Assembly: GCA_048884785.1 (NCBI GenBank)
Contig: JBHLQM010000046.1
Coordinates: 1-18,831, forward strand
Source of the DNA: Candidatus Thorarchaeota archaeon
GTDB taxonomy: Archaea; Asgardarchaeota; Thorarchaeia; Thorarchaeales; Thorarchaeaceae
Direction: 5' to 3'
Length of the DNA: 18,831 bases
How positions within the stretch are numbered: the stretch's first letter is position 1; the number at the start of each line of letters is the position of its first letter. Both the position numbers and the translations under genes were made by a program. The notes beneath the pieces were generated by a model. It was not told where the DNA came from. It saw nothing but the letters and a program-made list of their open reading frames with translations, and searched no databases. Positions 1 to 18,831 of this stretch are shown one piece after another.

Positions 1-1
1 T

Positions 2-88
2 CTACTTTTAGTCGCAGGTACACATAGACTAGGATTGGTGCGAGTGATTCGCACCTCTACCTATTCAGAAAAATCAGAAGAAAACTAA
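2..88 (+). CDS. 3' end of a gene entering from the left edge (…LLLVAGTHRLGLVRVIRTSTYSEKSEEN*), probably a membrane protein
   Basis: Open frame from 2 to TAA 86-88. The stop overlaps the TAG of the convergent gene at 85-87. It has a hydrophobic start and a charged tail. Confidence 0.45.
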   Translation, partial: LLLVAGTHRLGLVRVIRTSTYSEKSEEN

Positions 89-378: not shown

Positions 379-426
379 TTTATCTACCTCATAGGATAGT
401 CCTCGGGAAACCTAAAGACCTCATAT

Positions 427-451
427 CTCGGCGATGCCGAGTTGAATTCAA
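427..451 (-). terminator. Hairpin CTCGGC-GAT-GCCGAG plus palindrome TTGAATTCAA just downstream of the 462-1370 gene
   Basis: Perfect 6-bp GC-rich stem at 427-441 and a 10-bp palindrome at 442-451 in the intergenic gap. The function is inferred from position. Confidence 0.3.
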
Positions 452-461
452 TGCAGTTCGA

Positions 462-1370: not shown

Positions 1371-1436
1371 CTCCCACTTACACTAAGGCTGTTTTGCATT
1401 TTATTCTGCGTATTCGAGCAGAGGTCTAATGTAGAG

Positions 1437-2609: not shown

Positions 2610-2611
2610 TA

Positions 2612-2735
2612 TTAGTATACTCCATATTTTTTAAATAGACTCCAAGCAATTTCGAGATTTCGGACGGCAATATCCAGCGGTTCCCAAGGCCACTCACAAC
2701 CTGCGGCAAACATGTATCTGAACCAGGTTGCTTTC
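2612..2735 (-). pseudogene. C-terminal remnant of a second URO-D/MtaA-family methyltransferase gene
   Basis: The - strand frame reads …RYMFAAGCEWPWEPLDIAVRNLEIAWSLFKKYGVY* (TAA 2612-2614), resembling the MtaA-type C-terminus (GCE…P..N….KYG.Y). The frame is closed upstream by TGA. Its stop lies 2 nt before the intact gene's ATG. Confidence 0.65.
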
Positions 2736-2774
2736 CAGTTGCTACAAAGAACCCCTAAATTGATGAAATGGGCT

Positions 2775-2845
2775 AAACCAGCTCATATACCCTCTGTAAA
2801 AAAAGAATATTAGCTGGTTTCAAGTTTCAGTATACCAACCAGCTA
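2775..2845. promoter_or_regulatory. Three alternating AACCAGCT boxes in the divergent UroD/corrinoid promoter
   Basis: AAACCAGCT 2775-2783, TAGCTGGTTT 2811-2820 and AACCAGCTA 2837-2845 form two 9-bp inverted-repeat pairs sharing the middle box. Confidence 0.5.
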
Positions 2846-2862
2846 GAGAGTGTTGATTGCAG

Positions 2863-3492
2863 ATGTCACTAGAAGAGATAACAAAGATGCTTGTTGATTT
2901 GGATGTTGACAACATCGCAGCAACTGCTCGACAGATTATTGATGGCGGTACTGATCCTCAAGAAGTCTTGAAAGCACTTACCACGGGAATGAATGAAGTG
3001 GGAAATAAGTATGAGCAGGGTGAGTATTTTCTCACAGAGCTGGTGCTTGCAGGTGAAACAATGAAAGAAGCTTTTGCAGTCATCAAGCCACGCCTTGCTC
3101 TAGATGAAACAGGAGCCAGAAAGCCTGTGGTGATTGCGACAGTAAAGGGCGATAATCACGATATCGGGAAGAACATTCTTGGCACTATGCTCATCTCTGC
3201 AGGATATGATGTCATTGATCTTGGAATAGATGTTTCAAAAGAAACGATTGTTGAAACAGTAAAGAAGCACAATGTGAAAGTAGTCGCTTTGAGCTGTCTG
3301 TTAACAATGACGATTAAAGAGATATCAGCAGTTAATGATGCATTGAGAGAGGCAGGCCTGAGAGACAAGGTTCGACTCATTGTTGGAGGTGCTCCTTTGA
3401 GCATGGAGCTTGCGAGAAATCTTGGAGCAGATGATTATGGTGCTGATGCAATTGATGGGGTGAAAAGAATAGGTGCGTTATTGGAGCGATAG
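2863..3492 (+). CDS. Methyltransferase-cognate corrinoid (B12-binding) protein, MttC/MtbC-like
   Basis: Cap domain (GMNEVGNKYEQGEYFLTEL) plus B12 motif GDNHDIGKN…SCLLT…IVGGAP. The start is ATG 2863 or TTG 2857. Confidence 0.93.
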   Translation: MSLEEITKMLVDLDVDNIAATARQIIDGGTDPQEVLKALTTGMNEVGNKYEQGEYFLTELVLAGETMKEAFAVIKPRLALDETGARKPVVIATVKGDNHDIGKNILGTMLISAGYDVIDLGIDVSKETIVETVKKHNVKVVALSCLLTMTIKEISAVNDALREAGLRDKVRLIVGGAPLSMELARNLGADDYGADAIDGVKRIGALLER

Positions 3493-3497
3493 ACCCT

Positions 3498-3758
3498 TTG
3501 GATGCATCCACATGTGTTCTAAAAGCTCTCAATCATGAGGAGCCAGACCGTGTACCATCATTTGAGACTACATTCACCAACAACACAATCATGGAGTACC
3601 ATGGAGTTCCTTCAAGAGAAATTGTCAGTGGAGTGGACTATTACGCAATCAGGATTGCTGTTGCACATGTCAGAACATCCTACATCGGACCTCTTTGGGT
3701 AGCAAGTCCCTGATTTCGCCATACTATCAGCGCAGTGCAGGAGATTTATCTGGAATAA
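3498..3758 (+). pseudogene. Truncated URO-D/MtaA-family gene (N-terminal stub, possibly with a degenerate C-terminal tail)
   Basis: Starts with the family signature VLKALNHEEPDRVP.FE but stops after 71 aa (TGA 3711-3713), whereas the family is ~350-390 aa. The in-frame tail FRHTISAVQEIYLE* loosely resembles the terminal helix. Confidence 0.7.
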
Positions 3759-3780
3759 CCAATAGATATTCTCAACGAGT

Positions 3781-4779
3781 ATGATAGATGATTGGTTGCA
3801 GACCGCACTTGAAGAAACATCCAAGCTCTATGGATTTCAAATTGACAAGCTTGTGAAACTCGCTGGTGGATTTGAAAACAAGATATTTGGATATGATTCT
3901 CCTAAGTCAAAGCTCGTAGTGCGTGTAACCCCACCAGGCCACAAGACCCCTGCTGAAGTACATGCCGAAATGGATTGGCTAGTCTATCTTCAGACAAATA
4001 GTGCTCCCGTTGAGCATGTGATCGCATCCAAGAATGAGAATCTTGTGGAAATAGCTGATACTGATGAAGGACCTATCTCCGTTGTCTGCTTTGAGTGGGC
4101 ATCGGGAAAACTAGTATCAAAAGATGACTTCTCTCCAGAGCTCTTTCGGTCTTGGGGAAAAGCCGTTGGTATGATGCATAGACTCACAAAAGACTACAAA
4201 CGAAAAACTCAGTCTAAGCGTATTCAGTGGTATGACGACAAGTACTTGAATCGAGATCTTATTCCATCAGACCAAGAACTAGTTCTTCAGAGATTTGATT
4301 CCCTCATTGACCACTTCAAGAAACAGACGCCTCTGGAAGATAATTTTGGTATGATTCACGAAGATGTGCACAATGGCAACTTATTGCTTGATGGAAACCA
4401 ACTGACAGTTCTCGATTTTGACGATTGTGTATATGGCTTCTTCATTTTCGATATAGCAAATGCGCTTGGGTTCTCAATCTGGCAGAAACCAGATGACATG
4501 AATAACAACCAGTTTGCAGAATTCTATTTGAAGCACTTCATGGCGGGTTATCATGAAGAGAATCAATTAGACCAGTCAATCATGGAAGAAGACTTTCCAA
4601 AAGCATTGAAACTCTTTGAATTCATCCACTATAATGCATTCAACATGGATTATGACCTTGCAGGTAGTGGTTCCTTTGACTCATTGAATAGCAAGACACA
4701 GCAGATTCTGAAGAGATATAGAGATAGTATCGAGAATGATCTTCCATACATTGAGAATACCTTCAATCCTTACACCTGA
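3781..4779 (+). CDS. Aminoglycoside phosphotransferase / choline kinase / type II homoserine kinase-like phosphotransferase
   Basis: GGFEN N-lobe motif, Brenner motif IHEDVHNGN, LDFDD and FDIA. Confidence 0.9.
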   Translation: MIDDWLQTALEETSKLYGFQIDKLVKLAGGFENKIFGYDSPKSKLVVRVTPPGHKTPAEVHAEMDWLVYLQTNSAPVEHVIASKNENLVEIADTDEGPISVVCFEWASGKLVSKDDFSPELFRSWGKAVGMMHRLTKDYKRKTQSKRIQWYDDKYLNRDLIPSDQELVLQRFDSLIDHFKKQTPLEDNFGMIHEDVHNGNLLLDGNQLTVLDFDDCVYGFFIFDIANALGFSIWQKPDDMNNNQFAEFYLKHFMAGYHEENQLDQSIMEEDFPKALKLFEFIHYNAFNMDYDLAGSGSFDSLNSKTQQILKRYRDSIENDLPYIENTFNPYT

Positions 4780-4829
4780 TGTAATTCCTCTAACTAACCA
4801 TTGAAAAGCATTAGAACGAATTTTCCGCT

Positions 4830-5354
4830 ATGGAAATTGCTACATTTGGAGCTGGTTGCTTCTGGTGTACAGAAGCTGTGTTTCAGCAGCTCAAGGGAGT
4901 CGAATCAGTGGTATCGGGCTATTCTGGAGGCCATGTTGACAATCCGACCTACAAACAAGTCACAACAGGCACTACTGGACATGCAGAGGTGACACAGATA
5001 TCCTTTGATCCTGAAATCATCGGCTTTGAAGAACTACTAGAGGTGTTTTTCACTACTCATGATCCGACAACCCTGAATCGACAGGGAAACGATGCTGGAA
5101 CTCAATATCGTTCAGTCGTTTTTTATCATAACGAGGAGCAACGGGAAATCGCTGATAGGATGAAATCAGAATTGAGTGAGAAAAGGGTCTGGAAGAATCC
5201 AATAGTTACTGAGATAGTCCCCTTAAAGAAATTCTATCCAGCTGAAGACTATCATCAGAATTACTATAGAAACAATCCCAATGAAGGCTATTGCCGTTTC
5301 GTAATCAAGCCTAAACTAGACAAGTTTGAGAAAACATTCAAACTCAAGCTTTAA
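4830..5354 (+). CDS. msrA: Peptide-methionine (S)-S-oxide reductase MsrA
   Basis: [32 protein letters not shown] and [12 protein letters not shown]…GYC. Confidence 0.98.
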
Positions 5355-5492
5355 TGACCTGATTTATACACCATAGTGATTAATTGCATTAATGACAGAT
5401 TCTATTCATCTAGCTCATGCAATTCATAGAGTCTTTCACAAGTCTAAATCAAATGAGCTAGTTCAAGACCTGAGCTGCTTGGGTGTGCTACA

Positions 5493-6299
5493 GTGTCAGA
5501 ACTGGAACCAGATCAACTGTATGTGTTCTGCAACATATGCAAGGAGAACGTCCCCATCGAGGTTGGTGAGAGTGAAATAGAGGCCTCCACTTCTGGTCTT
5601 ACCACCGTAATTTCAGTACATGGTTCCCCTCAGCATGCCATTCTCGTATATCTGGACAAGCAGATGAAAGCACGAGGTGTCGAGTATCCATCTGTCCTGC
5701 AAGTAGAGGGAGCCCCCACAGTAGATGGAGCAAGTGAGTTGCCAAAAGAAGAGGTTCTCTATGACCTCGAGTCCGTCATCAGTGCTTTCGGGGAAAAGGA
5801 AGAGTCTGCCATAAGAGCCTTTGTACAGATCATCTCACAGATTATAGTGCGAAATAATGTCTATCTTGTTCATAATAATAGAAGCATTGGGAAAGTGGTG
5901 AAAGGCCAACTTGATGCTCTATTTGCTGATCAGAAGACCTCTCTCGAGGTCATCAGCTACGATGAGATAGATGGTGTAGCTGGAATGCGACCCACGATCT
6001 TCGACCTTCAATATGGAACGTTCATCTCTGAGGGCATCAAGATTGAAACCGTCTACTTTGAGAATCTCGTTGAAGACGCCCTTTCCCACATCAACGGATT
6101 TAATCTGTTGAGAAATGAATTCAGCAAGCTCATGTTTTCATATAGAAGGCTCTGGGAACTGCTGACTAGCGGAGCGAAAAAATATACACAAAAGAGAATA
6201 GCTTACTTAGTTTCAATAGATCATGCTCTCATTCCATTGCTGCTTCAGATAGCAGAGAATGATGGAATCGATGTTAGCTCGAGAGTTGGAGAAGACTAG
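5493..6299 (+). CDS. Hypothetical protein with an N-terminal CxxC/His Zn-binding module, central alpha/beta domain and possible C-terminal HTH
   Basis: CNIC…HGSPQH…VYLD….RGVE N-terminal module. Clean 268-aa ORF. Confidence 0.75.
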   Translation: MSELEPDQLYVFCNICKENVPIEVGESEIEASTSGLTTVISVHGSPQHAILVYLDKQMKARGVEYPSVLQVEGAPTVDGASELPKEEVLYDLESVISAFGEKEESAIRAFVQIISQIIVRNNVYLVHNNRSIGKVVKGQLDALFADQKTSLEVISYDEIDGVAGMRPTIFDLQYGTFISEGIKIETVYFENLVEDALSHINGFNLLRNEFSKLMFSYRRLWELLTSGAKKYTQKRIAYLVSIDHALIPLLLQIAENDGIDVSSRVGED

Positions 6300-6411
6300 T
6301 GTTTCCCAAAACTGATTTCAGACTTTTAATTCTAGATGGGTAATTGAATTCTTTATGGTCACAAGGTTATGCGGATATGAAAGAAACAATTCCTCAATGA
6401 TTGGTCGAAAC

Positions 6412-6963
6412 CTAGGATGACACGATAGACTTAGCAGACGAGGGATTTAGTCTAAGCAGCTCTTCTGCATACTCTCTATTGCGAATTTGAAGAACCATCA
6501 TTCCAGCTCCTTCCGAACTGTCAAGAACCTTTATAGCTTTTTCAAGCTCACTAGGACCACCCACATAGCTGGTGATCATAATTCCAATTATGACTAGTGC
6601 AATAAGAAGAATAGTCATCAAATCCAGAACTCCAGTAAGAGCAAATGATCCCAAGAGGAACATCCCCAGAAAGAGAGCAAGGACTATGAGGAGACCGCTA
6701 CAAATACCACAGGGACCTCGCAGCCTTGCTGTTTCTTCGAAGGAAATAGCATGTCTTTCACATACTGGCACTGAGAATCTATGCATGCCTGTGCCATACC
6801 TCTTATCCATGCGGCTCATTGACCAGAAATGCCCACTTCCTGCAAATGAAGTATGACGCGTTGCAGCCTGTGCTGTTCCTCTATCAAGGGCAGACATGGC
6901 GGGGATAGTGCCTTCATCTTCTGCGGGCGCCCCACATACTGGACATCTACTCGGCAGATTCAC
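6412..6963 (-). CDS. Hypothetical membrane protein with split Zn-finger (CPVC…VPVCERH) and two TM helices
   Basis: LPSRCPVCG and PVCERH motifs plus two hydrophobic helices. The frame stays open upstream to CTG 7002 (LSRKYIIQITSSR), so the start may be earlier. Confidence 0.75.
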   Translation of the reverse strand: MNLPSRCPVCGAPAEDEGTIPAMSALDRGTAQAATRHTSFAGSGHFWSMSRMDKRYGTGMHRFSVPVCERHAISFEETARLRGPCGICSGLLIVLALFLGMFLLGSFALTGVLDLMTILLIALVIIGIMITSYVGGPSELEKAIKVLDSSEGAGMMVLQIRNREYAEELLRLNPSSAKSIVSS

Positions 6964-7125
6964 CCTACTTGAGGTGATCTGAATTATGTACTTTCTACTC
7001 AGCTTTACTCATCTCCACGATTCCGTTATTGCCTCTTTGTGCAATTCTTGGATATGAAAGGTTTTCTCTTTTCACAATGATATTCAGCTCAACCTCTCGT
7101 AGTGGCGCCTAGTTCCATTGACTAT

Positions 7126-7142
7126 ATCCATCATTGATGGAT
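7126..7142 (-). terminator. Inverted repeat ATCCATCA-T-TGATGGAT just downstream of copA
   Basis: Perfect 8-bp arms 10 nt past the copA stop. The role (terminator or binding site) is uncertain. Confidence 0.3.
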
Positions 7143-7152
7143 CTATGGCAAT

Positions 7153-9849
7153 TTACGGAATCGCGGGTTCAGTTGCGTTGTCTTCCTCGTACTGTTTAGG
7201 ATCTGCTTCAAAGGTTTCTTTACAATACTGATTGCAGAAGTAATAGCGCTTACCGTTGTAATCGCTATAGAGGTCAGCAGTAGCAATCTCTACCTTCATT
7301 TTGCATATAGGGTCAATAGCAACGTCTCCCTCTTGATAGGCTGCAATCGGCGTATCGACTAGTGGTTCAGAGTTTTTCTCTGTTTTGAAGCGGTTCAGAG
7401 TCAGAGCATTAGCAACAACGCTTACACTTGATAGCGCCATTGCAAGCCCTGCAAATTCAGGCCTCAAGACTAAACCAGCTGATGGGAATAAAAGCCCCGC
7501 AGCAATTGGTAAAAGCACAATATTATATATTAATGCCCAGAAGAACCCTTGTTTTATTTTGGACATTGTACGGCTGCCCAACTGAATTCCTGTGACTACA
7601 TCGAGTAGGTCATCCTTGACCAATACAATATCTCCTGTTTCAACTGAAACGTCGGTTCCTGATCCCAGAGCAATTCCTACATCTGCTTGTGCTAGAGCTA
7701 CTGCATCGTTTACACCATCACCGGCCATTGCTACAATTCGATTTTCACTCTGTAGCTCCTTGATTTTCTCAGCCTTATCAGCCGGTAGGACTTCTGCTAA
7801 TACTCTCTTAATACCAACAGTTTCTGCTATGGATAGAGCAGTTGCTTCTTTATCGCCTGTGATCATCCAAACCTCTATACCCATTTCCTTGAGTTTATCA
7901 ACAGCACGTATTGAGGAATCCTTGAGCTTGTCAGCAATTGCAATCAGTGCGAGCATGCGTCCATCAATAGCTGCAAAGACAGTCGTCTTTCCTTTCTCCT
8001 GTAACTTAATCCCTTGTGCTTCAGCATCAAGAATATCCACAGAATTTTCCCTCATGAACCTGTCATTGCCTATAATCACTAACTGGCCTTCGACTGAAGC
8101 TTGCACTCCTCTTCCTGTAGTTGAGATAAAGTCAGAAGCAGATGGGATTTCAATGTTAAGTTTCTCGGTGTATTGTACAATCGCTTCAGCAAGGGGATGT
8201 TCACTATTCTTTTCCACTGATGAGATAAGACGCAAAGCTTCTCCTTCACTGAAATCGTCATAGGTAATAATGTCTGTTACTGTTGGTTTTCCAATTGTGA
8301 GCGTCCCTGTTTTGTCAAATACCATAGTATCAACTGTTGGAATGACTTCAAGACCCTCACCAGCCTTTATCAAGATTCCATGTTGTGCACCTTTTCCAAT
8401 CCCAACCATTATCGCTGTTGGTGTGGCCAATCCCAAAGCGCAGGGACAGGCAGCTACAAGCACTGCAATGGTAAAGGTTAGAGATTGGGTCAATTCAACT
8501 GATAGGCCAGAAATTGGGGACACTATACCCAAGATTGGAGATATATAGTACCAAAAGATGAAAGTTGAAAGTGCTAAAACAATGACAATTGGTGTAAATC
8601 TGCTCGCAATTGCGTCTGCCTTCCGCTGAATCGGAGGTTTGTTTGTTTGGGCTTCTTCCACGAGTTTTACAATCTGAGAGAGTACTGTGTCCTTCCCAAC
8701 CTTTGTTGCCCTAACTTTTAACACACCATTCTTGTTGATGGTTGCACCTACCACTGTATCTCCTACGGTCTTCTTGACAGCTACGGGTTCTCCTGTGATC
8801 ATTGACTCATCAACACTTGACTTGCCGTCTATGACTTCACCATCTACTGGAACTTTATCACCGGGTCTTATGAGAACGATATCTCCAACCTCCACATCCT
8901 CAATTGGGAGGAGTAGTTCCTCACCATCTCGGATTATTGTGGCTACTTTCGCTTGAAGATCCATCAACTTTCTCATTGCTTTCGATGTACGACCTTTGGC
9001 GATTGCTTCGAGGGTTCTACCAAGTAGTAGGAAACTGATTAGTAGAACTGCTGAATCATAAAAAGGCATGTATTCATTCCACTGAGGGACGAATGTAGTA
9101 ACAACTGAATAGGTGTAAGCAGCACTTGTGCCCAACATTATGAGGGTGTCCATGTTTGTCGTGAAGTGTCGTGCGGCTTTCAATGCAGACTTAAAAAATG
9201 GATATCCTGCAATAAACTGAACCGGCGTTGCAAGAAGGAACATGGCAAGCTTACTAATTTCTTCAGATGGGAAGAGTGGTGCAAGGACTCCGAAGTGTAT
9301 TAAAACAACAGGTATTGACAGAATGACTGAGAAGGCAAGAAGGAGAGAATAAAAACGAATTTCTTTCTCTCGAGCTAAGGATTCTCGATCTGCTTCAATA
9401 CCTTCAGCTTGCTCGACTGCAATTCCAATTTTCTCAAGTATCTTTTTAACAGATTTGTATGTGACCAGATCATCATCATATTCTATCAAAGTACGATTTG
9501 TATCTTTAAATGCAGTAGCAGTTATGACACCATCTTCATCTTCTAGCGTCGCAATAATTTTATCCCAATCTAGAGTGGATGATGATTCACTGAGAGTTAG
9601 GGTCATAGTAGGTCTTCGTGCTCGATACCCTGTAGACGCTACAGCTTTCTCCAAGGTTGTTCTATCAACAGTATGAGTCTTGTATTCGATTACAGCCTTT
9701 TCATCGAGTAGGCTAACATTGGCTCGAATAACTCCTTCTTGACTTGTTAAGGCATTCTCTATTTTGGCAACGCAGGATGCACAATGCATCCCTTCAATAC
9801 GCATCGACATTCTAGATGCAGTGACTTCAGTTTCAGCTTTTTGACTCAT
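7153..9849 (-). CDS. copA: Cu(I)-translocating P1B-1 ATPase with N-terminal HMA, a degenerate second HMA and a C-terminal YHS/TRASH domain
   Basis: [36 protein letters not shown] and MALSS motifs. C-terminal DPICKM…YYFCNQYC. The start is placed at ATG 9849 behind a GGTGG SD, because the longer ORF runs over the operator and padR. Confidence 0.96.
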
Positions 9850-9880
9850 TTCTGTCCACCGTAATTGCAATTCAATACAA

Positions 9881-9913
9881 TGTCTTTTCCGATATATCGG
9901 ACACGATATATAA
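9881..9913 (-). promoter_or_regulatory. Operator 1 (TGTC-N6-GATATATC-N6-GATA) overlapping the copA TATA box and predicted TSS
   Basis: Core at 9891-9898 within palindrome TCCGATATATCGGA (9888-9901). TTATATA lies on the - strand at 9913-9907. Confidence 0.85.
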
Positions 9914-9956
9914 GATTTGTGATTGGACCAATTATGATAGGAAACCATTTTGACAA

Positions 9957-10439
9957 TTATAGACTCTGTTTGAACGCTTTCGCACAATGAACACAGCAAA
10001 AAGCAAGATTTGATCCATTTACTTCTTCATGGTGCGCGCCTTCGAAGATCCTAGCTCCACAACTTGCACATACCTCAAGACTGGACCCGAGGGCAGATAC
10101 AGTAATCGCAGCAAAACGTTTGAATAACTGGCCGCTAAATTGCTCTCCCTTCTTCGTCAATGAATACACAATCTTACGTTTCTTCCCTACGTCTTCATGC
10201 TTCTGGGTGACTATCTTCTTTTCTTCGAGTTCCTGCAAAAATGGATAGAGTGTTCCTGGACTTAATTTCCTCCCGGTTCGTTTTTCATATCTTTTCATAA
10301 GACCATAACCATGCAATGGCTTTTCGTTCAACATCAACAGGATATAGAAATGCGAGAAATCAGCCAGTATCTCATGAATCTCAGGATTGGGTATTTTCAA
10401 GTCTTGATTTGCTTTTTCATTTGTCATCTTTTGTGTCAT
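9957..10439 (-). CDS. PadR-family transcriptional regulator fused to a C-terminal TRASH-type metal-binding domain
   Basis: PadR wHTH ([17 protein letters not shown]…SPGTLYP.L.ELE…[11 protein letters not shown]) plus CASCG…LAFCCVHC. The likely start is ATG 10439 or 10427. Confidence 0.9.
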
Positions 10440-10612
10440 CCCATTGAAGCTCGAATGTGTTGAGTCACACGGATAAGGAATGAAGGCGTTCCCGCGTGTT
10501 ACATTTAGCCCATTCTGCAAAGCAGTTTCCTATAATAGTTGCCTATTTGACTAGGCTATTCCCGATTGTCCTTAGAAATGAACCACATTCTAAGATATCT
10601 AGACGAGTAGCA

Positions 10613-10649
10613 ATATAAATGTATCTTAAGGGATATATCCATAGGGATA
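10613..10649 (-). promoter_or_regulatory. Operator 2 (perfect TATC-N6-GATATATC-N6-GATA, 10622-10649) abutting the padR TATA box, consistent with autoregulation
   Basis: TTTATAT on the - strand at 10619-10613, 2 nt from the operator. Confidence 0.85.
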
Positions 10650-10682
10650 ATTAATATGAAACTACCCGGAATCCCACAGGAA

Positions 10683-10709
10683 ATGATTCAGCCATAAATT
10701 CTGAATCAT
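10683..10709 (-). terminator. Hairpin ATGATTCAG-N9-CTGAATCAT downstream of copZ
   Basis: Perfect 9-bp inverted repeat ~65 nt after the copZ stop. Confidence 0.4.
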
Positions 10710-10772
10710 CCAGTCAGAATTTTAAGAGCACTCAACAATGGTAAAGGGTACTTGTCAATTACTTTTCCTCTT

Positions 10773-11009
10773 CTATGCTACAACGATATATCCAAGGGAT
10801 TCTATGACATCTACAAGAAGCTCTCTATCGATTATATCGTCTTCGATTTCAACAACAGCCTCGGCTTTCTGAAGACTTACTTCAGCGCCTTTTACTCCGT
10901 CCTCACAAAGAAGGACATTTTTAATTCTGTCTGCACATGCGGGGCAATCCATGCCATTGATCTTGAAAAATATGTGTTTAGTTTCTTTCTCAATTACGTG
11001 ATCACTCAT
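10773..11009 (-). CDS. copZ: HMA-domain copper chaperone (CopZ/Atx1-like), 78 aa
   Basis: FKINGMDCPAC…GV..AEVSL…IESLGY. ATG 11009 is chosen because the upstream extension is the operator. Confidence 0.9.
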   Translation of the reverse strand: MSDHVIEKETKHIFFKINGMDCPACADRIKNVLLCEDGVKGAEVSLQKAEAVVEIEDDIIDRELLVDVIESLGYIVVA

Positions 11010-11020
11010 TTTGTATAAAC

Positions 11021-11048
11021 TATCAAATAGGATATATCGTTTTAGATA
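11021..11048 (-). promoter_or_regulatory. Operator 3 (perfect consensus) immediately upstream of copZ
   Basis: TATC-AAATAG-GATATATC-GTTTTA-GATA. Confidence 0.85.
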
Positions 11049-11239
11049 TATTTTTTTGGTTGACGACGCGGATAATAGCACGATAAGAAATCGTTCTGAA
11101 GATATCCTCAAGGTGTTAGCCTTTCAACTCTGAGTAAGATATGAGATTGCTCAAATATGAGATAACAAACTGAGTTTCCTGTCAGTGTTAGAAATGGATC
11201 TCAAATAAGAAAAGGAAATATAAAGCAGAAGACAGAACG

Positions 11240-11304
11240 TTTATATATATCTAGTGGGATATATCTGAATGGATAATATTGTTTTCGATATATCTGAATG
11301 GAAA
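11240..11304 (+). promoter_or_regulatory. TATA box (TTTATATA 11240-11247) followed by tandem operators 4 and 5 for the YHS-lonC-nif3 operon
   Basis: TATC-TAGTGG-GATATATC-TGAATG-GATA (11248-11275) and TATT-GTTTTC-GATATATC-TGAATG-GAAA (11277-11304). They contain the 16-bp direct repeat GATATATCTGAATGGA. Confidence 0.85.
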
Positions 11305-11327
11305 TACAAAAGGCAGAGGCAAAGGAA

Positions 11328-11483
11328 ATGGCTAGAGATCCAATATGTGGAATGATAGTGGATGAGAACACAACCAGGCTAAAGACGGTTCATAAAGGTG
11401 AAACTTTCTACTTTTGTATGAGGAGCTGCAAGAAAGCCTTTGACAGTGATCCAGATCGCTTTGCCATCGAATCTACAAATTAA
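11328..11483 (+). CDS. Stand-alone YHS/TRASH metal-binding protein (YHS-1, 51 aa)
   Basis: MARDPICGM.V…GETFYFCMRSCKKAFDSDPDRF. The start is placed at ATG 11328 because ATG 11298 lies inside the operator. Confidence 0.9.
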   Translation: MARDPICGMIVDENTTRLKTVHKGETFYFCMRSCKKAFDSDPDRFAIESTN

Positions 11484-11504
11484 TGATAGAACAGGAGAAC
11501 ATCG

Positions 11505-13961
11505 ATGAAGAAGCTGACATCAGAGGAAATTCGGGTTCGTTGTGATGATAGAGAGTTTGCATGCAGAACTAGTGCGGAGCTTTTTCCCCTAGATAATATC
11601 GTTGGACAGAAACGTGCTCTTGAATCATTGAGAATCGGACTAATGATAAAGGATAAGGGATTCAATGTCTTTGTTGCCGGTATTCCAGGAACTGGTCGCA
11701 CAACTGCAGTTTCAAAATTCCTTCAAAATCTTGCAACAAAAGAATCTAATGCATCAGATTGGTGCTACGTATCCAATTTCGAGGATCAATATTACCCAAG
11801 GGCACTTGAGCTTCCATCAAGCAGAGGGTGGCAATTGGAGCAGCAAATGGAGAGCTTCATTGAACTTGCTCAATTGACGCTTTCTGAGATGCTGGAAAGT
11901 GAGGAATATATTACACAAAGAGAGGAGCTTCTGAGGGTCTTCAAAGACAAACAGCAGGAAATAAGCAATCAAATGGAAGATGAAGCACGAAAAAGCGGGT
12001 TCGTATTGCAGGGTTCTAAGACTCGACTACTCTTACTACCACTAATCAATGGTGAGCCTCTCAATCCTGAAGCAAACACTCATCTGCCCAAGGAAATCCA
12101 AGACAAAATCGCAGAAAATCGCAAAGTCGTGGAAAAACAAATACGAGTGCTTTTCCGCAAGTTACGTCTTATTGAACATGAACTTCGTGAGGCTCTTCAG
12201 AATAAGGAGCGAGAAGCCGTGCTTTACGCCCTCTCTCCACTTATTGATGACCTTAAGGAGAAGTTCAGGGATTTGCCAAGGGTTACACAATGGATTGAGG
12301 AAGTAGCTGAGGATATCACCGAACATCTTCAGGAATTTATCGGACTCTCAGAAGTTGGTTCATCAGATGAGCTGAATTCATCGCAAGCGGGATCAATCCC
12401 ACGGGAAGATTTCACTGACAGATATAAAGTAAATATGTTTGTTGATAACTTGGGAGAAGATGGCGCGCCAGTTGTAATCCTTGCAAATCCTTCTTATAGC
12501 AATCTATTTGGCGTTATTGAGAAAGAACCACGATATGGCGGACTTAGAACAGACTTTTCTATGATCCGCCCAGGAGCCCTTCATAAGGCAAATGGTGGAT
12601 ATCTAGTGGTTCCTGCAATGGAACTTCTAACATCTCCACATGTATATCAATCTTTGAAGAGAGCACTTGAACATAGTGAGATAGTCATCGAGGCCCCTCA
12701 GGAATCAAGCAACTTCCTTGCTGTGAAGAGTTTACGTCCTGAACCAATCCCATTGGACGTAAAAGTAATTCTAATTGGTGAGGAAGAGATTTACCGAGAG
12801 CTTTACAATAAGGACCCCGAGTTTCGTCAACTTTTCAAGATAAAGGCGGAATTTGATATTTCGATGGATCGCACGCTTGAAAACATCCAGGTATTTGGCT
12901 CGTTCATTTGTATGATTCATACAAAGGAAGGTCTGAGACCTTTGAAGGCAGAAGCCATAGCAGAAGTAATCGATCATAGCTCTCGTCTAGCAGAAAGCCA
13001 AAACAAGCTCTCTATAAGATTCGACATAATAACTGACATCATTCGCGAAGCAAACTTCTATGCCAGCGAAGAAAAAAGCGTTACGATAGAAAGATATCAT
13101 ATCAAAAAGGCCATCAGTCAAAGATTATACCGATTGAATCTTTACTCCGAGAAGGTTCGTGAGCTTATTAAGAAGAATATCATTTTTATGGATCTTGATG
13201 GAGAGGCTGTAGGACAGGTAAATGGACTTTCGGTGGTCACTCTCGCAGGTCATGCTTTTGGACAAGCATCTCGAGTTTCAGCTAGTGTATCGCCAGGACA
13301 CCAGGTTGTGATAGATATTGAACGTGAATCAAATCTTGGTGGTCCGATTCATACAAAAGGAGTACTCATACTTGGGGGATATCTTGCTAATCGATATGGA
13401 AGAGAAAAACCACTTAGCCTTTCTGCGCGGGTTGTTTTTGAGCAGAGTTATGGAGGCGTTGAGGGAGATAGTGCAAGTAGCACGGAACTGTTTGCGATTT
13501 TATCTGCTCTTTCAGGCGTACCTATCCAACAGAGATTTGCTGTAACTGGCTCCGTCGATCAACATGGAAGAATACAGGCTGTGGGAGGAATTAATGAAAA
13601 GATTGAAGGATTTTACGAACTTTGCAAAGCAAAAGGTTTGACAGGGCAGCAGGGAGTCTTGATACCAAAAGCCAATATTCAGAATTTAATGTTATCAGAT
13701 GAAGTAGTTGAAGCTGTCAGAGCAGATTCATTTCACATTTATGCAATAGATAGTGTGGATGAAGGCATTGAATTCTTAACTGGTGTACCAGCAGGTACAA
13801 GTCAAGAGAATGGCAGCTATTTGCCAGGATCAATTAATGCATTGGTGGATGAGACTCTGGTTCGAATGGCTAGAATCATGGAAAAGCATTATTCTACTGA
13901 AAATTACAACAAACAAGAAATCTCTGCTACACCACAACAAGTGACTTTCTCTGGAGCCTGA
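11505..13961 (+). CDS. lonC: Lon-like S16 protease of the LonC / AAA_32 type
   Basis: GQKRA, atypical Walker A GIPGTGRT, DWCYV.NF, a long coiled-coil insert, I.PGALHKANGGYL, GQVNGLSV, catalytic FEQSYGGVEGDSAS and GGINEKIEGF. Confidence 0.92.
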   Translation: MKKLTSEEIRVRCDDREFACRTSAELFPLDNIVGQKRALESLRIGLMIKDKGFNVFVAGIPGTGRTTAVSKFLQNLATKESNASDWCYVSNFEDQYYPRALELPSSRGWQLEQQMESFIELAQLTLSEMLESEEYITQREELLRVFKDKQQEISNQMEDEARKSGFVLQGSKTRLLLLPLINGEPLNPEANTHLPKEIQDKIAENRKVVEKQIRVLFRKLRLIEHELREALQNKEREAVLYALSPLIDDLKEKFRDLPRVTQWIEEVAEDITEHLQEFIGLSEVGSSDELNSSQAGSIPREDFTDRYKVNMFVDNLGEDGAPVVILANPSYSNLFGVIEKEPRYGGLRTDFSMIRPGALHKANGGYLVVPAMELLTSPHVYQSLKRALEHSEIVIEAPQESSNFLAVKSLRPEPIPLDVKVILIGEEEIYRELYNKDPEFRQLFKIKAEFDISMDRTLENIQVFGSFICMIHTKEGLRPLKAEAIAEVIDHSSRLAESQNKLSIRFDIITDIIREANFYASEEKSVTIERYHIKKAISQRLYRLNLYSEKVRELIKKNIIFMDLDGEAVGQVNGLSVVTLAGHAFGQASRVSASVSPGHQVVIDIERESNLGGPIHTKGVLILGGYLANRYGREKPLSLSARVVFEQSYGGVEGDSASSTELFAILSALSGVPIQQRFAVTGSVDQHGRIQAVGGINEKIEGFYELCKAKGLTGQQGVLIPKANIQNLMLSDEVVEAVRADSFHIYAIDSVDEGIEFLTGVPAGTSQENGSYLPGSINALVDETLVRMARIMEKHYSTENYNKQEISATPQQVTFSGA

Positions 13962-14860
13962 TGAATATGACTAAGCAAAATATCATCAGCAAGGATCTGG
14001 AGGGATTAAACAAATCTATTTCCTTTAGAACAATGATAGCCCCATTAGAATCTCAGAGTATAAAGTCAGAAGTAGTACAATCTGAGCACATGATAGATTC
14101 CGACATGATCATCGAGTTTCTAGAAAATCGTACATACTTGCCTGAGTTTGATTATATCGGTTATGAAGTAAAAACTGTTGATCGTGTTAACGCAATATAC
14201 TTGATGATAAATCCAGATCCATTGAATCTCAATTATGTACCAAAAAACAGTCTAGTTATTTGTCATCACAAAATTTCGACACACAATAATCGTTTCTACG
14301 AAAAAATGCTTGACCACGCAAGAGATACAAACTTCAACATTTACAATTTCCATCTTGGGTGGGATATTATGGAGGGTGGAATCATAGATTCATTTCTATT
14401 TGACTTCGGATTATCTCATAACGATTTTGAAAGAGTTGATCTTACATATCGAGATTATCTAATTCCTCAACTAGGAACTATATTCAAAAAAAGAATACCA
14501 ATGAGGGACATAATCAATGGACTTCACATGATGAATGTCCGGCCATCAATTATCATTAACCCACAATGCAAGGTATCCAAGATTGGATATATACCTGGTG
14601 GGGGTTTTGTTGATGATATGGTCATAGGGATGGCGGATTTAGGTGTCGATGTCCTCATTTCATCAGACCATAATTGGGTTGTTGAAACTATTGCTAGAGA
14701 GGCGGGTATGACCCTAATTGAAATTGACCATTATCGCAGTGAACGTCATGGTTTACGAACAATGAAGAAACTTCTTGAGAACTCATTTTCAAAGAGTTCC
14801 ATCAATATCCTAGAGAATGTTGATGGAATGCAACAAGCCCCTTGCGATTGTAATTCTTGA
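13961..14860 (+). CDS. NIF3/YbgI-like dinuclear metal-centre protein (divergent, short form)
   Basis: LVICHH, IYNFHLGWD, KIGYIPGGG, DVLISSD and IEIDHYRSE metal-ligand motifs. TGATG overlap with the lon stop. Confidence 0.85.
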   Translation: MNMTKQNIISKDLEGLNKSISFRTMIAPLESQSIKSEVVQSEHMIDSDMIIEFLENRTYLPEFDYIGYEVKTVDRVNAIYLMINPDPLNLNYVPKNSLVICHHKISTHNNRFYEKMLDHARDTNFNIYNFHLGWDIMEGGIIDSFLFDFGLSHNDFERVDLTYRDYLIPQLGTIFKKRIPMRDIINGLHMMNVRPSIIINPQCKVSKIGYIPGGGFVDDMVIGMADLGVDVLISSDHNWVVETIAREAGMTLIEIDHYRSERHGLRTMKKLLENSFSKSSINILENVDGMQQAPCDCNS

Positions 14861-14972
14861 GGAATGATCATTCAAGAAGAACTATTGTTCGTATGAATTT
14901 TATGTTACATAGCAAAGTCTTGTTGCATGCTGGCTCGAGCGCCCCACTTCTATGACCGTATCTTCAATTCAC

Positions 14973-15878
14973 TTATTTTTGATCCATCTTTGATTGAACT
15001 CTCTTGGCCCGAACAATCTTTACATTAACAACAATGTGGCTAGGGTTGGAACGTTCTTGAATCTTGGTTTTAATGTAATAGAGTGAAATCAAAGAGAGAT
15101 ATCCAACATATGCGATGACCTCAAGGGCTGAAGGATTCCCATTGTAACCGAATAGAGCTTTTGCGAGTCCACCAATAAGACCCTTCTCATGTAGAAGTGG
15201 ATAGCTGCCATCTGGTAATAACGGAGGATTGATGTTCCAAAGTTCAATTGGACCTAATGCTAAGAGACCTACTTCTTGAAGCTCATGAATACCATAGGCG
15301 AGCATTCCAGCGGCAAATAGTACCAAGAGGAAAGAAGTTGAGTTGAAGAATGATTTCAGACTGATTCGCAATGAGCCTAGATAGATTCCAAATCCGACAA
15401 AGACTGCGAAAATCAACCCCAAAGCCGTTGCGATGAAAGTCGTATATCCTTCTTGAATTGCTAGTGCAGCTGTGAACAAGACTAACTCAACACCCTCCCG
15501 CAAAACAAGGGCAAAAGCAAGAATAGGTAGGCCGAGATTTCCTCCCACAGCCCTCTCCTCAACCGATTGTTTGATCCCTGTGGATAGGTTTGTACTCGCC
15601 TTTCTCATCCAGAATATCATAGAAGTCAAGAGAATTGCTGCAAATAACACAACTGACCCCTCAAAGACCTCCAGCATTGGTCCTTCAAATGACCCCCAAA
15701 TCACCGCCAGTACAAAAGCTAATCCGACACTTGTGACTATTGCAAGTAAAGTGCCGCTGATGATGCTGCGATTCATATTCTCTCTGCCAGTCTTGCGAAG
15801 ATAAGAGAACATTATTGCAATGACAAGGGCAGCTTCAATACCCTCACGCAGTGCAACAATGAATGGTGCAATGACCAT
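14973..15878 (-). CDS. FTR1/EfeU-family iron (or lead) permease
   Basis: Two REGxE motifs (LREGIEA, LREGVEL), ~7 TM helices and GIHELQE…LFGY. Confidence 0.93.
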   Translation of the reverse strand: MVIAPFIVALREGIEAALVIAIMFSYLRKTGRENMNRSIISGTLLAIVTSVGLAFVLAVIWGSFEGPMLEVFEGSVVLFAAILLTSMIFWMRKASTNLSTGIKQSVEERAVGGNLGLPILAFALVLREGVELVLFTAALAIQEGYTTFIATALGLIFAVFVGFGIYLGSLRISLKSFFNSTSFLLVLFAAGMLAYGIHELQEVGLLALGPIELWNINPPLLPDGSYPLLHEKGLIGGLAKALFGYNGNPSALEVIAYVGYLSLISLYYIKTKIQERSNPSHIVVNVKIVRAKRVQSKMDQK

Positions 15879-16036
15879 TATAGAATCCTCCCATCAATGA
15901 TTAATTCTTCTCCTCTGGCAGAGATTCTATTCGGAGAGTGCCACATTACACACTGTCTTTGGTGCTTCTCTGGTCTACGGACAAACGATCTGGAAGGCTC
16001 ATTGATCTCCTTCTTCAGATCCACAACTCTGCCCAT
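15878..16036 (-). CDS. Small 52-aa ORF coupled between the ubiquitin-like gene and FTR1 (unknown function or remnant)
   Basis: The GGAGGAGGT Gly codons of the upstream gene sit at SD distance from ATG 16036. Its TAA overlaps the FTR1 ATG (TAATG). Confidence 0.5.
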   Translation of the reverse strand: MGRVVDLKKEINEPSRSFVRRPEKHQRQCVMWHSPNRISARGEELIIDGRIL

Positions 16037-16040
16037 GAGT

Positions 16041-16361
16041 TCAACCTCCTCCTGTAGCAATCATAAACACAATTGTGTCACCTTCATTGAGTATTCTATT
16101 CATTGTTTCTTTTGAATCGAGGCCCATTTTTAGTTTCCAACCTGTTATGATTATTTTACCATTAACTATGATGATTGTTTCATTACTGAGGGTTTGGTTT
16201 TTCTTCTCATCTAGATACACGTCCAATGAATCACCAAACACACTCATCAAGTGACCAATCAGATCAGTGAGCGAAGTTCCTTCTTGAATATGAAATGGAA
16301 ATTTGTTGTAGTTTGATTCTTTAAGACCCCTATTCAACAGCTTGATGAAAACTTGAATCAT
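16041..16361 (-). CDS. Ubiquitin-like MoaD/ThiS/SAMP-family protein (106 aa, C-terminal GGG)
   Basis: Beta-grasp pattern MIQVFIKL…EGTSLTDLI..L…IIIVNG…LNEGDTIVFMIATGGG*. GGAGG SD before ATG 16361. Confidence 0.88.
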   Translation of the reverse strand: MIQVFIKLLNRGLKESNYNKFPFHIQEGTSLTDLIGHLMSVFGDSLDVYLDEKKNQTLSNETIIIVNGKIIITGWKLKMGLDSKETMNRILNEGDTIVFMIATGGG

Positions 16362-16464
16362 TGAGTTTTCCTCCTTTGATGGTTTTTGTCTAGAATACAA
16401 CTCTGGCATGTAGAAAATACTCGAGTGTGTCATTCCGCAGAATTCCTTCTTTGATATGCATCTC

Positions 16465-16647
16465 TTAACCACAGCAGCCTCGTCGGGGCATTGATACTGC
16501 TTTACGCTGTGAATAGAAATACGGGGAATCATCAAACCTTGTTTTGCATGACTGCTTGCAGAAATAGTATCTCTTTCCCATATAGTCAGAATAAAACTCT
16601 GTTAGGTTTTCGTCAACCTCTAATCCACAAACTGGATCTTTTCCCAT
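16465..16647 (-). CDS. Stand-alone YHS/TRASH protein with C-terminal GCCG tail (YHS-2, 60 aa)
   Basis: MGKDPVCGLEV…GKRYYFCKQSCKTRFDDSP…RRGCCG*. AGGTGA SD at 16655-16660. Confidence 0.9.
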   Translation of the reverse strand: MGKDPVCGLEVDENLTEFYSDYMGKRYYFCKQSCKTRFDDSPYFYSQRKAVSMPRRGCCG

Positions 16648-16761
16648 TGTTATATCACCTTCAGTTCCAGTTCTACTCTTGTGCCTTCAATACTCAAAAT
16701 CTTGGTGAACGAGTATTGCCATCCAATAGGCCAATTGTTCACCAAATCTCTTGATTATATA

Positions 16762-16846
16762 TTACCACAAGGATATATCGGAACTGTATTATTATGACAC
16801 ACTTCACTATATAAATATATCGTACAGGATATATCCTTTGTGGATA
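16762..16846 (-). promoter_or_regulatory. Operators 6 and 7 flanking the TATA box (TTTATATA, - strand 16815-16808) of the YHS-2/Ubl/FTR1 operon
   Basis: GATATATC cores at 16772-16779 and 16828-16835, 56 bp apart, with degenerate outer half-sites. Confidence 0.8.
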
Positions 16847-16866
16847 TATAATGGTGTTTGTCATTC

Positions 16867-16904
16867 AAAAGAAAAAAAGAGTGGAGAAGTGGGAATCTTC
16901 TCCA
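16867..16904 (-). terminator. Hairpin plus U-tract terminator after YHS-3
   Basis: TGGAGAAG-N7-CTTCTCCA (16882-16904), followed on the - strand by TCTTTTTTTCTTTT. Confidence 0.65.
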
Positions 16905-16945
16905 GCCTATTTAAGAATTGTACAAGATTCCTTAGGCTAAGTTTT

Positions 16946-17098
16946 CTATTCTTTCATTCCCACTTCTAGGTTGAATTTCTCTGGATTGCTGTCAAACATC
17001 TTCTTATGTTCTGGATTCATAAAGTAGTATGCTTTTCCCTTGTAAACGGATTTGATATGGGATTTGCCCATCATTCCACAAACAGGACATTTTGCCAT
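16946..17098 (-). CDS. Third stand-alone YHS-like protein (YHS-3, 50 aa), not in the ORF track
   Basis: Hand translation: MAKCPVCGMMGKSHIKSVYKGKAYYFMNPEHKKMFDSNPEKFNLEVGMKE*. It has an AGGTGA SD and its own operator pair upstream. Confidence 0.88.
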   Translation of the reverse strand: MAKCPVCGMMGKSHIKSVYKGKAYYFMNPEHKKMFDSNPEKFNLEVGMKE

Positions 17099-17214
17099 TT
17101 TTTTCACCTATTTTCCCGATCGCATATTCCTATTGGATCGTTCATTCGACTCTCCAGAAACACTCCGAATAAATGGAGTAACGGAGGCTCCAACGAAACA
17201 TTCAATCATATTTA

Positions 17215-17297
17215 TATCCATAGAGATATATCGAGATTGATTTATAATTACATCATGATAATATAAATCTATCGTATTCGATATATCCAAGTAGATT
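17215..17297 (-). promoter_or_regulatory. Operators 8 and 9 flanking the TATA box (TTTATAT, - strand 17267-17261) of YHS-3
   Basis: TATC-CATAGA-GATATATC-GAGATT-GATT (17215-17242) and TATC-GTATTC-GATATATC-CAAGTA-GATT (17270-17297). The cores are 55 bp apart. Confidence 0.85.
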
Positions 17298-17495
17298 TAT
17301 CAATGGGATTCACACTAATGCTCATGGGAGCACTGATCGGTGCGCTTTCCGAGTGCCTTGATGATTTTGCTCCCACATGACAGCTGCCAGATTCTATATT
17401 TGTTGGGCGAAAGACTGAGTAGCCACTCCCAGAAGGGATTTTAGCACCTTTGGACCTTCAATAGTAGTTCTATTCTTCGTGGAGTTGTGCTCTAA

Positions 17496-18764
17496 GTGTC
17501 AGAAGAAGTGCAGGTCTATGGCTATCGATGGGCAGTATTATTGGTATTTGGCCTAACCTTTATGATTGGGCAGATGATGTGGCTAGCTTTCTCGCTGATT
17601 CGAAACGAGGTTACACCAGTTCTTGGGCTTGCACCAGGAGACCCTGGGGTTGTCCTGTTGACGGCATCACAGCCATTGGCATTCATTCTTCTGTCAATAC
17701 CAGTTGGCATTTTAGCGGATAGGAAAGGGCTCGTATTTGTAGCAGGGCTAGGAGCTATTCTGCAGGCCTTGTTCGGGTCTCTGCGAATTGTCTTCATCAA
17801 CGACTTTCTTCTGATCTTTGTCTGCCAATTCGGTCTATCAATCGGTTCTGTTCTTGTCCAGAATTGCATTGTCTACTTGAGCGTGAATTGGTTTCCCAGG
17901 AATGAGCGTGCACTAGCTACCGGTGTTAGCACATTGTTCATGCTCTTAGGAATGCTATTGGGAACCGTATTGAGCATGCTTCTATGGACTGTGCCTCTCT
18001 ATGGCGAGCCCGGCTTTACGGTTGCATTGGCGGAAGGTAATGTTCTATCAGTTCTATATCTTGATGCAATCGTCGCGATTATACTCACAGTTCTCTTCTT
18101 TGCTGTTGCTAGAAATAAGCCTCCAAAGCCACCGGACGTCGAATTGATATCATCCACCAATCCAAGTATAAGGGGAATGCTCAAGGACAGAAGTGTTTGG
18201 GTCATATCTATTGGATTCTTCGCGGGCTTTGGCATCTTTATCGGACTTACAGCAATACTGGAGGAACTCCTCTTGAGCCTTGGACTACCAGTCGCGGCAG
18301 GTCTCGGAAGTCCAGCTATCGTGATGATTCTTCTTCTGGTTGCTGGTATAATTGGTGCAGTTCTAGTTCCTGCTGCATCCGAGAAAGTCCAGAAACGAAA
18401 ACCATTCATCATCATATGTTTGGCAATAGCATCAGTGGCAGTTCTGATTCTAGGAACATCGTCTATTCTTGAGCTGACCTTCATCATGTCAGCAATCCTG
18501 GGATTCTTCCTGATTGCGGTGATGCCACTAGGCCTTTCAATATTGGAGGAACTGGACTCTGTAGGACCAGAACTATCAGGCGCAAGCACAGGAGTGGCAT
18601 TCTGGTTCGGAAATCTTGGCGGTTTCACTGGATCATTGATTCTGGAAGTATTGAGGGTTGGAGAGTCATATCTCTACTCAATCCTGTATCTCTTCATTGG
18701 CATAGGGATTGCCACAGTCCTGATGACATTGCTTCCTGAAACGGGAGGACGGAAAGAAACCTAG
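17496..18764 (+). CDS. Major facilitator superfamily transporter (12 TM)
   Basis: YRWAVL N-terminus, motif A GILADRKG, WFPRNERALATG and a second-half repeat SEKVQKRKP. Confidence 0.92.
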   Translation: MSEEVQVYGYRWAVLLVFGLTFMIGQMMWLAFSLIRNEVTPVLGLAPGDPGVVLLTASQPLAFILLSIPVGILADRKGLVFVAGLGAILQALFGSLRIVFINDFLLIFVCQFGLSIGSVLVQNCIVYLSVNWFPRNERALATGVSTLFMLLGMLLGTVLSMLLWTVPLYGEPGFTVALAEGNVLSVLYLDAIVAIILTVLFFAVARNKPPKPPDVELISSTNPSIRGMLKDRSVWVISIGFFAGFGIFIGLTAILEELLLSLGLPVAAGLGSPAIVMILLLVAGIIGAVLVPAASEKVQKRKPFIIICLAIASVAVLILGTSSILELTFIMSAILGFFLIAVMPLGLSILEELDSVGPELSGASTGVAFWFGNLGGFTGSLILEVLRVGESYLYSILYLFIGIGIATVLMTLLPETGGRKET

Positions 18765-18831
18765 GTCTTTGAATATGTCTTACCGCCCATGTAGATAATA
18801 GTAACGCCTATGACTAGAGCTATGGCCGTAA
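18761..18831 (-). CDS. 3' end of a convergent membrane-protein gene entering from the right edge (…TAIALVIGVTIIYMGGKTYSKT*)
   Basis: Open hydrophobic frame ending at TAG 18761-18763, overlapping the MFS stop (CTAG). Confidence 0.55.
   Translation of the reverse strand, partial: TAIALVIGVTIIYMGGKTYSKT

Follow-up and report, generated by a model that had tools for sequence, protein, structure and literature searches.

The small PadR-TRASH protein analysed here is, in our reading, a copper-responsive transcription factor belonging to a widespread archaeal family, and we give a probability of roughly 60 % to the view that it sits as a dimer on an inverted repeat and is a Cu(I)-released repressor of copper genes. 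In this protein a PadR winged helix is joined to a cysteine-rich TRASH-type tail with a fixed set of five cysteines, its gene is linked to CopA-type pumps across archaeal lineages, and a palindromic motif that is both specific to these loci and conserved among them lies in front of the copper genes. Judged from these features and by analogy with known metalloregulators, the PadR-TRASH protein would itself bind this candidate operator, copper would be the effector, the outcome would be repression, and an exchange of Zn for Cu would provide the switch.

The DNA comes from Candidatus Thorarchaeota archaeon (GCA_048884785.1, contig JBHLQM010000046.1, positions 1 to 18,831 of the forward strand), and the term window is used below for this whole stretch of 18,831 nucleotides. 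The host genome, which is 3.6 Mb in size and 91 % complete, contains the PadR-TRASH gene as a single copy. Since, in addition, a search of this 91 %-complete genome gave no TRASH domain of the CopR type (PF08394), the PadR-TRASH protein is the only candidate regulator.

Domain architecture of the PadR-TRASH protein

The regulator gene occupies 9957..10439 on the minus strand and has a stop-free translation of 160 aa; the assignment is based on Pfam, on the relatives of the protein and on an AF2 model. An alternative in-frame ATG at 10427 would give the 156-aa form that most relatives have. A sequence search returned 63 full-length relatives, and 27 relatives with 39–90 % identity were aligned. 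Some relatives lie within far longer open frames, namely of 356 aa (G096, G043), 309 aa (P0172), 256 aa (P0269) and 227 aa (P0145), which points to extra domains fused to the PadR-TRASH unit.

It had been proposed in the first-pass annotation of this DNA that a PadR winged helix is fused to a C-terminal cysteine module, and this architecture is borne out by a Pfam search, which places PadR (PF03551) at residues 33–100 (10140..10343, minus strand) and returns two sub-threshold matches of the TRASH type at residues 123–158, as well as by the tail motif, which is exactly as described. The PadR match, with an E value of 1.8e-16 and a score of 60.3 bits against the Pfam cut-off of 27, is shared by all 27 aligned relatives. 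In the AF2 model of the full-length protein (pLDDT 87.3), the winged helix–turn–helix (wHTH) is followed by a long helix comprising residues 96–120 and then by a C-terminal hairpin and helix. The top Foldseek matches of this model are the short PadR proteins Rv3488, TA0346 and LmrR (E ~1e-5, TM score on the target 0.7–0.8), and over residues 20–115 short PadR proteins are the best match both in fold and in sequence. A single long C-terminal helix serves as the dimerisation helix in solved PadR proteins. A complex prediction for two copies, run with an alignment, scored 0.23 against a mark of 0.42, a value that bears neither way on dimerisation.

The TRASH-type module covers residues 121–160 (9960..10079, minus strand) and was delineated by alignment, profiles and fold, with C124, C127, C148, C149, C152 and H151 as its key residues. 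It contains the motifs CASCG at 124–128, HH at 136–137 and FCCVHC at 147–152, so that the earlier count of five cysteines and three histidines is exact. All five cysteines are invariant across the 27 relatives and H151 is conserved in at least 90 % of them, but the other two histidines do not share this constraint: H136 and H137 are variable and often replaced by tyrosine. They are therefore unlikely as ligands, and we have ruled them out as part of a metal site on the basis of this non-conservation. The spacing C124-x2-C127-x20-C148-x3-C152 agrees with the TRASH pattern C-x2-C-x19-22-C-x3-C, in which C149 is an extra, invariant cysteine.

Against models of the TRASH type, the 160-aa protein scores 26.3 bits with PF11494 (Ta0938) and 20 bits with PF24273 (TRASH_HVO_1752_C), the cut-off being 27 in each case. 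Among the relatives, PF24273 is matched at E≤0.01 by all 27 (best 1e-6) and Ta0938 by 25 of the 27. A profile built from the tail alone matches TA0938 (E 0.003), eL24 (E 0.015) and the FCS finger of L3MBTL2 (E 0.35). The tail was also modelled on its own (pLDDT 87.7), and a wide VIA-align search with these 48 residues put N-terminal domains of eL24/Rlp24 on top, with Z scores of 4.2–5.2 over 42–43 of the 48 residues at 1.7–2.0 Å; the best eL24 match reaches Z 5.2 over 43 residues at 1.9 Å. Further matches are the TRASH domain of ZMYM5 (2das), an FCS finger (2w0t), MYND fingers and the copper chaperone NosL. The Z scores are modest because the domain is small, and in a Foldseek run with the 48 tail residues alone nothing reached E≤0.001, the same set of folds being listed at E ~0.06–0.2. 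Taken together, the profile and fold searches place the tail, as a predicted member, in the TRASH superfamily (Ettema 2003), which includes TA0938, eL24 and the FCS/MYM fingers besides YHS and Arc_trans_TRASH, and the modelled tail agrees with the fold of eL24 and the MYM TRASH domains, a zinc knuckle with a beta-hairpin and a helix.

Distribution of the family and its linkage to copper genes

A HMMER search against 1.84 billion cluster representatives returned 371 proteins at E≤1e-10. In databases, proteins of the family bear no label other than 'PadR family' or 'TA0938 family'. At least 464 related stretches were confirmed in a scan of species-representative genomes, and the best 80 of them, which stem from Thor-, Hermod- and Promethearchaeota and from Bathyarchaeia, were used as the locus set. 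Within its own phylum the family is present in 69 of 201 sampled genomes and in 28 of 59 genera, a patchy spread as expected of an accessory gene, and it is also present in many Bathyarchaeia.

The first-pass annotation had placed the regulator directly upstream of copA, and this holds: copA (7153..9852, minus strand) lies on the same strand, 104 bp beyond the end of the regulator gene, and its product has the CPC, YN and MxxSS motifs of a P1B-1 Cu(I)/Ag(I) ATPase. Pfam assigns to it an HMA domain, the E1-E2 ATPase and hydrolase domains and a YHS domain, so that the pump carries a C-terminal YHS/TRASH module (encoded at 7153–7300) besides its N-terminal HMA domain. Just past copA, a 183-aa open reading frame on the minus strand (6412–6963) has an N-terminal CxxC motif resembling a zinc ribbon and a weak match to a transmembrane-domain model, and received no family assignment. 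On the other side of the regulator gene lies a gene for a CopZ-like HMA copper chaperone of 78 aa (10773..11009, minus strand; PF00403, E 5e-11), and the order on the minus strand is thus copZ, regulator gene, copA.

Divergent from these three genes is a gene for a 61-aa YHS/TRASH protein, a CopM-like candidate chaperone (11298..11483, plus strand; PF04945, E 3.3e-12). It heads a run on the plus strand (11298–14860) whose two later genes were assigned LonB/LonC and NIF3 domains: a LonC-like protease of 818 aa (11505–13961) follows after a gap of 22 bp, and NIF3/DUF34 (13961–14860) follows with a stop/start overlap. Two more small YHS genes lie on the minus strand, one for a 60-aa protein (16465..16647; PF04945, E 2.7e-13) and one for a 53-aa YHS-like protein in which the second cysteine pair is absent (16946..17107; PF04945, E 7.7e-8). 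A gene for an MFS transporter (MFS_1) is encoded at 17496–18764 on the plus strand, and an MsrA gene is found near the gene runs that bear operators. In the stretch 14973–16647 (minus strand), two further genes come after the 60-aa YHS gene in the same orientation: an open reading frame whose product ends in ATGGG and, next, a gene for an FTR1-type iron permease. The last 19 residues of the product ending in ATGGG weakly match the ThiS family (E 0.008, below cut-off), and judged from sequence the operator of the 60-aa YHS gene may also serve these two genes, for a possible ubiquitin-like protein and for the permease.

The neighbourhood of regulator and pump is not particular to this genome. 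In about 64 of the 80 loci, the best 80 of at least 464, a P1B ATPase is encoded within 6 kb of the regulator gene, in Asgard groups as well as in Bathyarchaeia. In most Asgard loci the pump gene directly follows the regulator gene in the same orientation, in most Bathyarchaeia loci the two are divergent, and a linkage that is kept across phyla despite a changed gene order argues for a functional tie. Among the neighbouring pumps, 48 have the full CopA signature of CPC, YN and MxxSS and four are CPH/CopB-like. Many of the pumps next to the regulator in Bathyarchaeia have a YHS motif and no HMA-type CxxC in their N-terminal part.

A candidate operator in front of the copper genes

The palindrome GATATATC occurs ten times in the window against an expected 0.42, and all ten copies fall into two clusters, at 9891–11294 and 16772–17287. 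Neighbouring copies are spaced 14 bp apart, which gives rise to the inverted repeat ATATATC-N6-GATATAT. Perfect copies of this composite are located at 9892, 11032, 11245 and 16815, and with up to three mismatches allowed the window contains 20 copies against 1.7 expected. In the whole 3.6-Mb genome there are only four perfect composites, all of them inside the window; the exact 8-mer has 109 copies in the 3.6 Mb, and its density in the window is 17-fold the average.

A motif scan places these candidate operator sites ahead of copA, copZ, the regulator gene and each of the three small YHS genes. One perfect composite (9892..9911) lies 40–59 bp upstream of the copA ATG, and a pair consisting of a perfect copy and one with two mismatches (11018..11051) lies 9–42 bp upstream of copZ. 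Two overlapping copies with one and two mismatches (10619..10652) are found ~180–210 bp upstream of the regulator gene. An array of 8-mers with a period of ~14 bp and one perfect composite (11244..11307) extends into the start of the 61-aa YHS gene, and given the head-to-tail packing of the run behind this array, the LonC-like protease and NIF3 may be copper-induced as well. A further array with the perfect composite at 16815 (16759..16850) is situated upstream of the 60-aa YHS gene, and four copies with one mismatch each (17212..17300) lie between the 53-aa YHS gene on the minus strand and the MFS gene on the plus strand.

Outside the window, the highest-ranking site is a tandem pair with one and two mismatches on contig C4 (C4:16509 and C4:16523), directly upstream of another YHS gene that is followed by an MFS_2 transporter gene (C4 ~16480–18270). 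The YHS open reading frame on this contig comprises one complete YHS repeat and half of a second one, and seems to have arisen by partial duplication within the gene. An MFS gene is thus found beside the operator in both places, at the C4 pair and at the array at 17212..17300 in the window.

The motif is conserved well beyond this genome. In 42 of the 80 loci, which span two phyla, the 200 bp before the regulator gene contain the exact 8-mer, and its density in the 80 loci is 2.6 per kb upstream of the regulator gene as compared with 0.11 per kb elsewhere. In an unbiased count of 8-mers, GATATATC is among the top words, and for 103 of the 128 exact copies the start of a regulator, YHS or copA gene follows within 350 bp. 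The flanking half-sites are conserved in the 14-bp register across loci. With regard to the spacer, the form ATATATC-N6-GATATATC is found in Asgard loci (L001–L037), and in Bathyarchaeia (L038–L080) the spacer is mostly N7. The core of the operator is A/T-rich and TATA-like, and part of its conservation could therefore reflect promoter function. A generic TATA box was rejected as the whole explanation: both the remainder of the genome and the 742 kb of locus DNA lying beyond the regions upstream of the regulator gene contain few copies of the exact word. No other transcription factor is conserved in these loci.

The distance between operator and start codon differs between clades. In this Thorarchaeota clade, sites lie 100–210 bp upstream of the start for the regulator gene and for the 60-aa and 53-aa YHS genes, which is far for a simple occlusion of the promoter unless the 5' leaders are long. 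For the regulator gene, the distance of ~180–210 bp is kept in the closest relatives (L001–L008), and it is 12–60 bp in other clades; the gap of 10440–10618 in the window suggests either that the leader is long or that the gene is transcribed chiefly from the promoter of copZ. The best reading of this arrangement of sites is that the regulator is probably autoregulated.

Proposed regulation and comparison with known systems

Based on these findings, we propose the following mode of action. A PadR-TRASH dimer would bind ATATATC-N6-GATATAT, with half-sites ~11 bp apart that often occur in 14-bp arrays. The A/T-rich core of the site would overlap the TATA-like promoter of copA, copZ, the regulator's own gene and several small YHS (CopM-like) genes, and occupancy of the operator would block the initiation of transcription. 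When the cytoplasmic level of Cu(I) or Ag(I) goes up, the thiolates of the TRASH module would bind the metal, which may take the place of a resting Zn(II), as happens in bacterial CopY. The geometry of the dimer would then change, the protein would leave the DNA and the regulon would be switched on.

An alternative that we consider unlikely, though worth keeping in mind, is that the same protein acts on the same operator as an activator or in a dual manner, and that it stays on the DNA while copper remodels the complex to recruit TBP/TFB, as has been proposed for CopR of Pyrococcus and Saccharolobus. It has been reported that CopR is a dual repressor and activator that remains bound, and that the direction of control varies among CopR proteins, with repression in one species and activation or dual control in others (PMC7830388); for this reason repression cannot be read from the architecture. 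The multi-copy arrays and the several sites 100–210 bp upstream described above would likewise suit upstream activation or cooperative assemblies of several dimers. On the other hand, in most loci of other clades the site upstream of the regulator start is located over the expected TATA/BRE position, and in the window the sites at copA and copZ are only 9–59 bp upstream. In addition, characterised proteins of the PadR family are mostly ligand-released repressors, and this also favours release over remodelling.

Still less probable, in our opinion, is a second alternative, in which the cysteine module is a structural Zn ribbon needed for stability or dimerisation and the protein senses another signal, for instance an organic ligand bound at the interface of the PadR dimer or the oxidation of thiols in disulfide or oxidative stress, with the copper genes being part of a broader stress response. 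The closest relatives of the tail in sequence and fold are TA0938, eL24 and zinc fingers of the FCS/MYND type; TA0938, eL24 and FCS fingers are Zn-binding or structural modules, and the cysteine cluster could thus be a structural Zn site. The operator-bearing runs also hold the LonC-like protease, NIF3, the ubiquitin-like open reading frame and FTR1, with MsrA nearby, a set of genes that looks like damage control rather than strictly copper handling. However, the linkage to CopA-type pumps is conserved over two phyla and two gene orders, and all promoters in the genome that bear the operator belong to genes for copper pumps, copper chaperones or YHS proteins. The fifth invariant cysteine, one more than the four of a Zn ribbon, is easier to explain by Cu(I) chemistry, and in CopR of Pyrococcus it is the TRASH domain through which copper is sensed (PMC7830388).

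That the GATATATC arrays are promoter elements or the sites of another factor, with the PadR-TRASH protein binding elsewhere or nowhere specifically, would fit the TATA-like character of the motif but is very improbable in view of its rarity in the genome, its 17-fold density and four perfect composites in the window, its travelling with the regulator gene in distant lineages, and the lack of another conserved transcription factor in the loci.

A broader reading can be considered, which is possible but which we hold as a whole to be tentative. The PadR-TRASH protein might stand in for CopR as the main sensor of cytoplasmic copper in several large uncultured lineages of archaea, the Asgard groups and Bathyarchaeia; an exchange of Zn(II) for Cu(I) in the five-cysteine site might re-set the PadR dimer; and in Thorarchaeota one operator might link the export of copper to a module for proteostasis and metal repair composed of the LonC-like protease, NIF3, the ubiquitin-like protein and the FTR1 permease.

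To our knowledge, archaeal copper sensing is known only from the Lrp-type CopR of a few cultured thermophiles and halophiles. If our proposal is true, the PadR-TRASH protein represents a second, independently assembled archaeal copper sensor with the TRASH module on a PadR scaffold, and the hosts of the family, Asgard archaea and Bathyarchaeia, are lineages almost without experimental genetics. The 20-bp operator and the small regulon can be read from sequence and, if confirmed, would allow the prediction of regulons across hundreds of metagenome-assembled genomes. The LonC-like, NIF3 and small YHS proteins, which are poorly understood, would likewise be placed in the physiological setting of copper stress, and the clade-specific spacer could be used to seek correlated changes in the recognition helix or in the dimer helix.

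With regard to known proteins, LmrR, Rv3488 and TA0346 (3f8b, 5zi8 and 3elk), which are short PadR proteins of subfamily 2, share with the PadR-TRASH protein the wHTH followed by one long C-terminal helix. In contrast, they end after this helix and have no TRASH tail, and their known ligands are organic and bound at the dimer interface; Rv3488 has been crystallised with a bound metal ion, according to its entry title, but is without a cysteine module. TA0938 (2fqh; PF11494) has in common with the tail the knuckle CAxCG ... FCCxxCA including the double cysteine, with only profile positions 3–36 of 92 aligned and a score just under the cut-off. It differs in being a stand-alone protein of 109 residues with an extra alpha/beta part and without a DNA-binding domain. 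A PadR regulator of Halobacterium that is induced by Cu/Ni (PMC6978704) was considered as a precedent and set aside, as TRASH is absent from the text of that paper and deletion of the gene had no significant effect under metal. No paper on the combination of PadR and TRASH was found in a search that left most subscription journals outside its reach.

The closest parallels in design are CopR and CopT, described as PF0739 in Pyrococcus furiosus and in Thermococcus onnurineus and Saccharolobus, in which an N-terminal HTH, of the Lrp/AsnC type in CopR, is joined to a C-terminal TRASH cysteine module (PMC7830388). As in these systems, the PadR-TRASH gene lies beside copA and genes for small TRASH/YHS or HMA chaperones and is apparently autoregulated. 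The scaffold is different: the PadR-TRASH protein is small and an expected dimer, with no match to an Lrp/AsnC model, whereas CopR of the Lrp/AsnC type is an octamer that wraps DNA. The tails also differ, that of the PadR-TRASH protein being of the TA0938/HVO_1752 type, and PF08394 misses the 160-aa protein and matches only one of the 27 relatives (E 0.002). Furthermore, the PadR-TRASH protein has the fifth invariant cysteine, has no His-rich tail and is associated with a short, sharply defined palindromic operator. The suggestion in the first-pass annotation that the protein is convergent with CopR/CopT fits these differences in scaffold and the lack of a PF08394 match in the 91 %-complete genome; its description as a new class, however, is overstated, and we would rather speak of a new scaffold for the known design of an HTH joined to a TRASH copper sensor.

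A similar way of working is known from CopY of Enterococcus hirae and Lactococcus, in which Zn(II) in a cysteine site is displaced by Cu(I) and the repressor then leaves a palindromic box that overlaps the promoter. CopY is likewise a winged-helix repressor with a C-terminal cysteine cluster, encoded upstream of copper ATPase genes, and the mechanism that we propose for the PadR-TRASH protein is the same. However, CopY is a bacterial protein of the BlaI/MecI family with CxCx4CxC as its metal site instead of a TRASH fold, and it has no sequence relationship to the protein studied here. The best reading of the sequence comparisons is that the PadR-TRASH protein is probably analogous in its working to CopR/CopT and to CopY while being a member of neither family.
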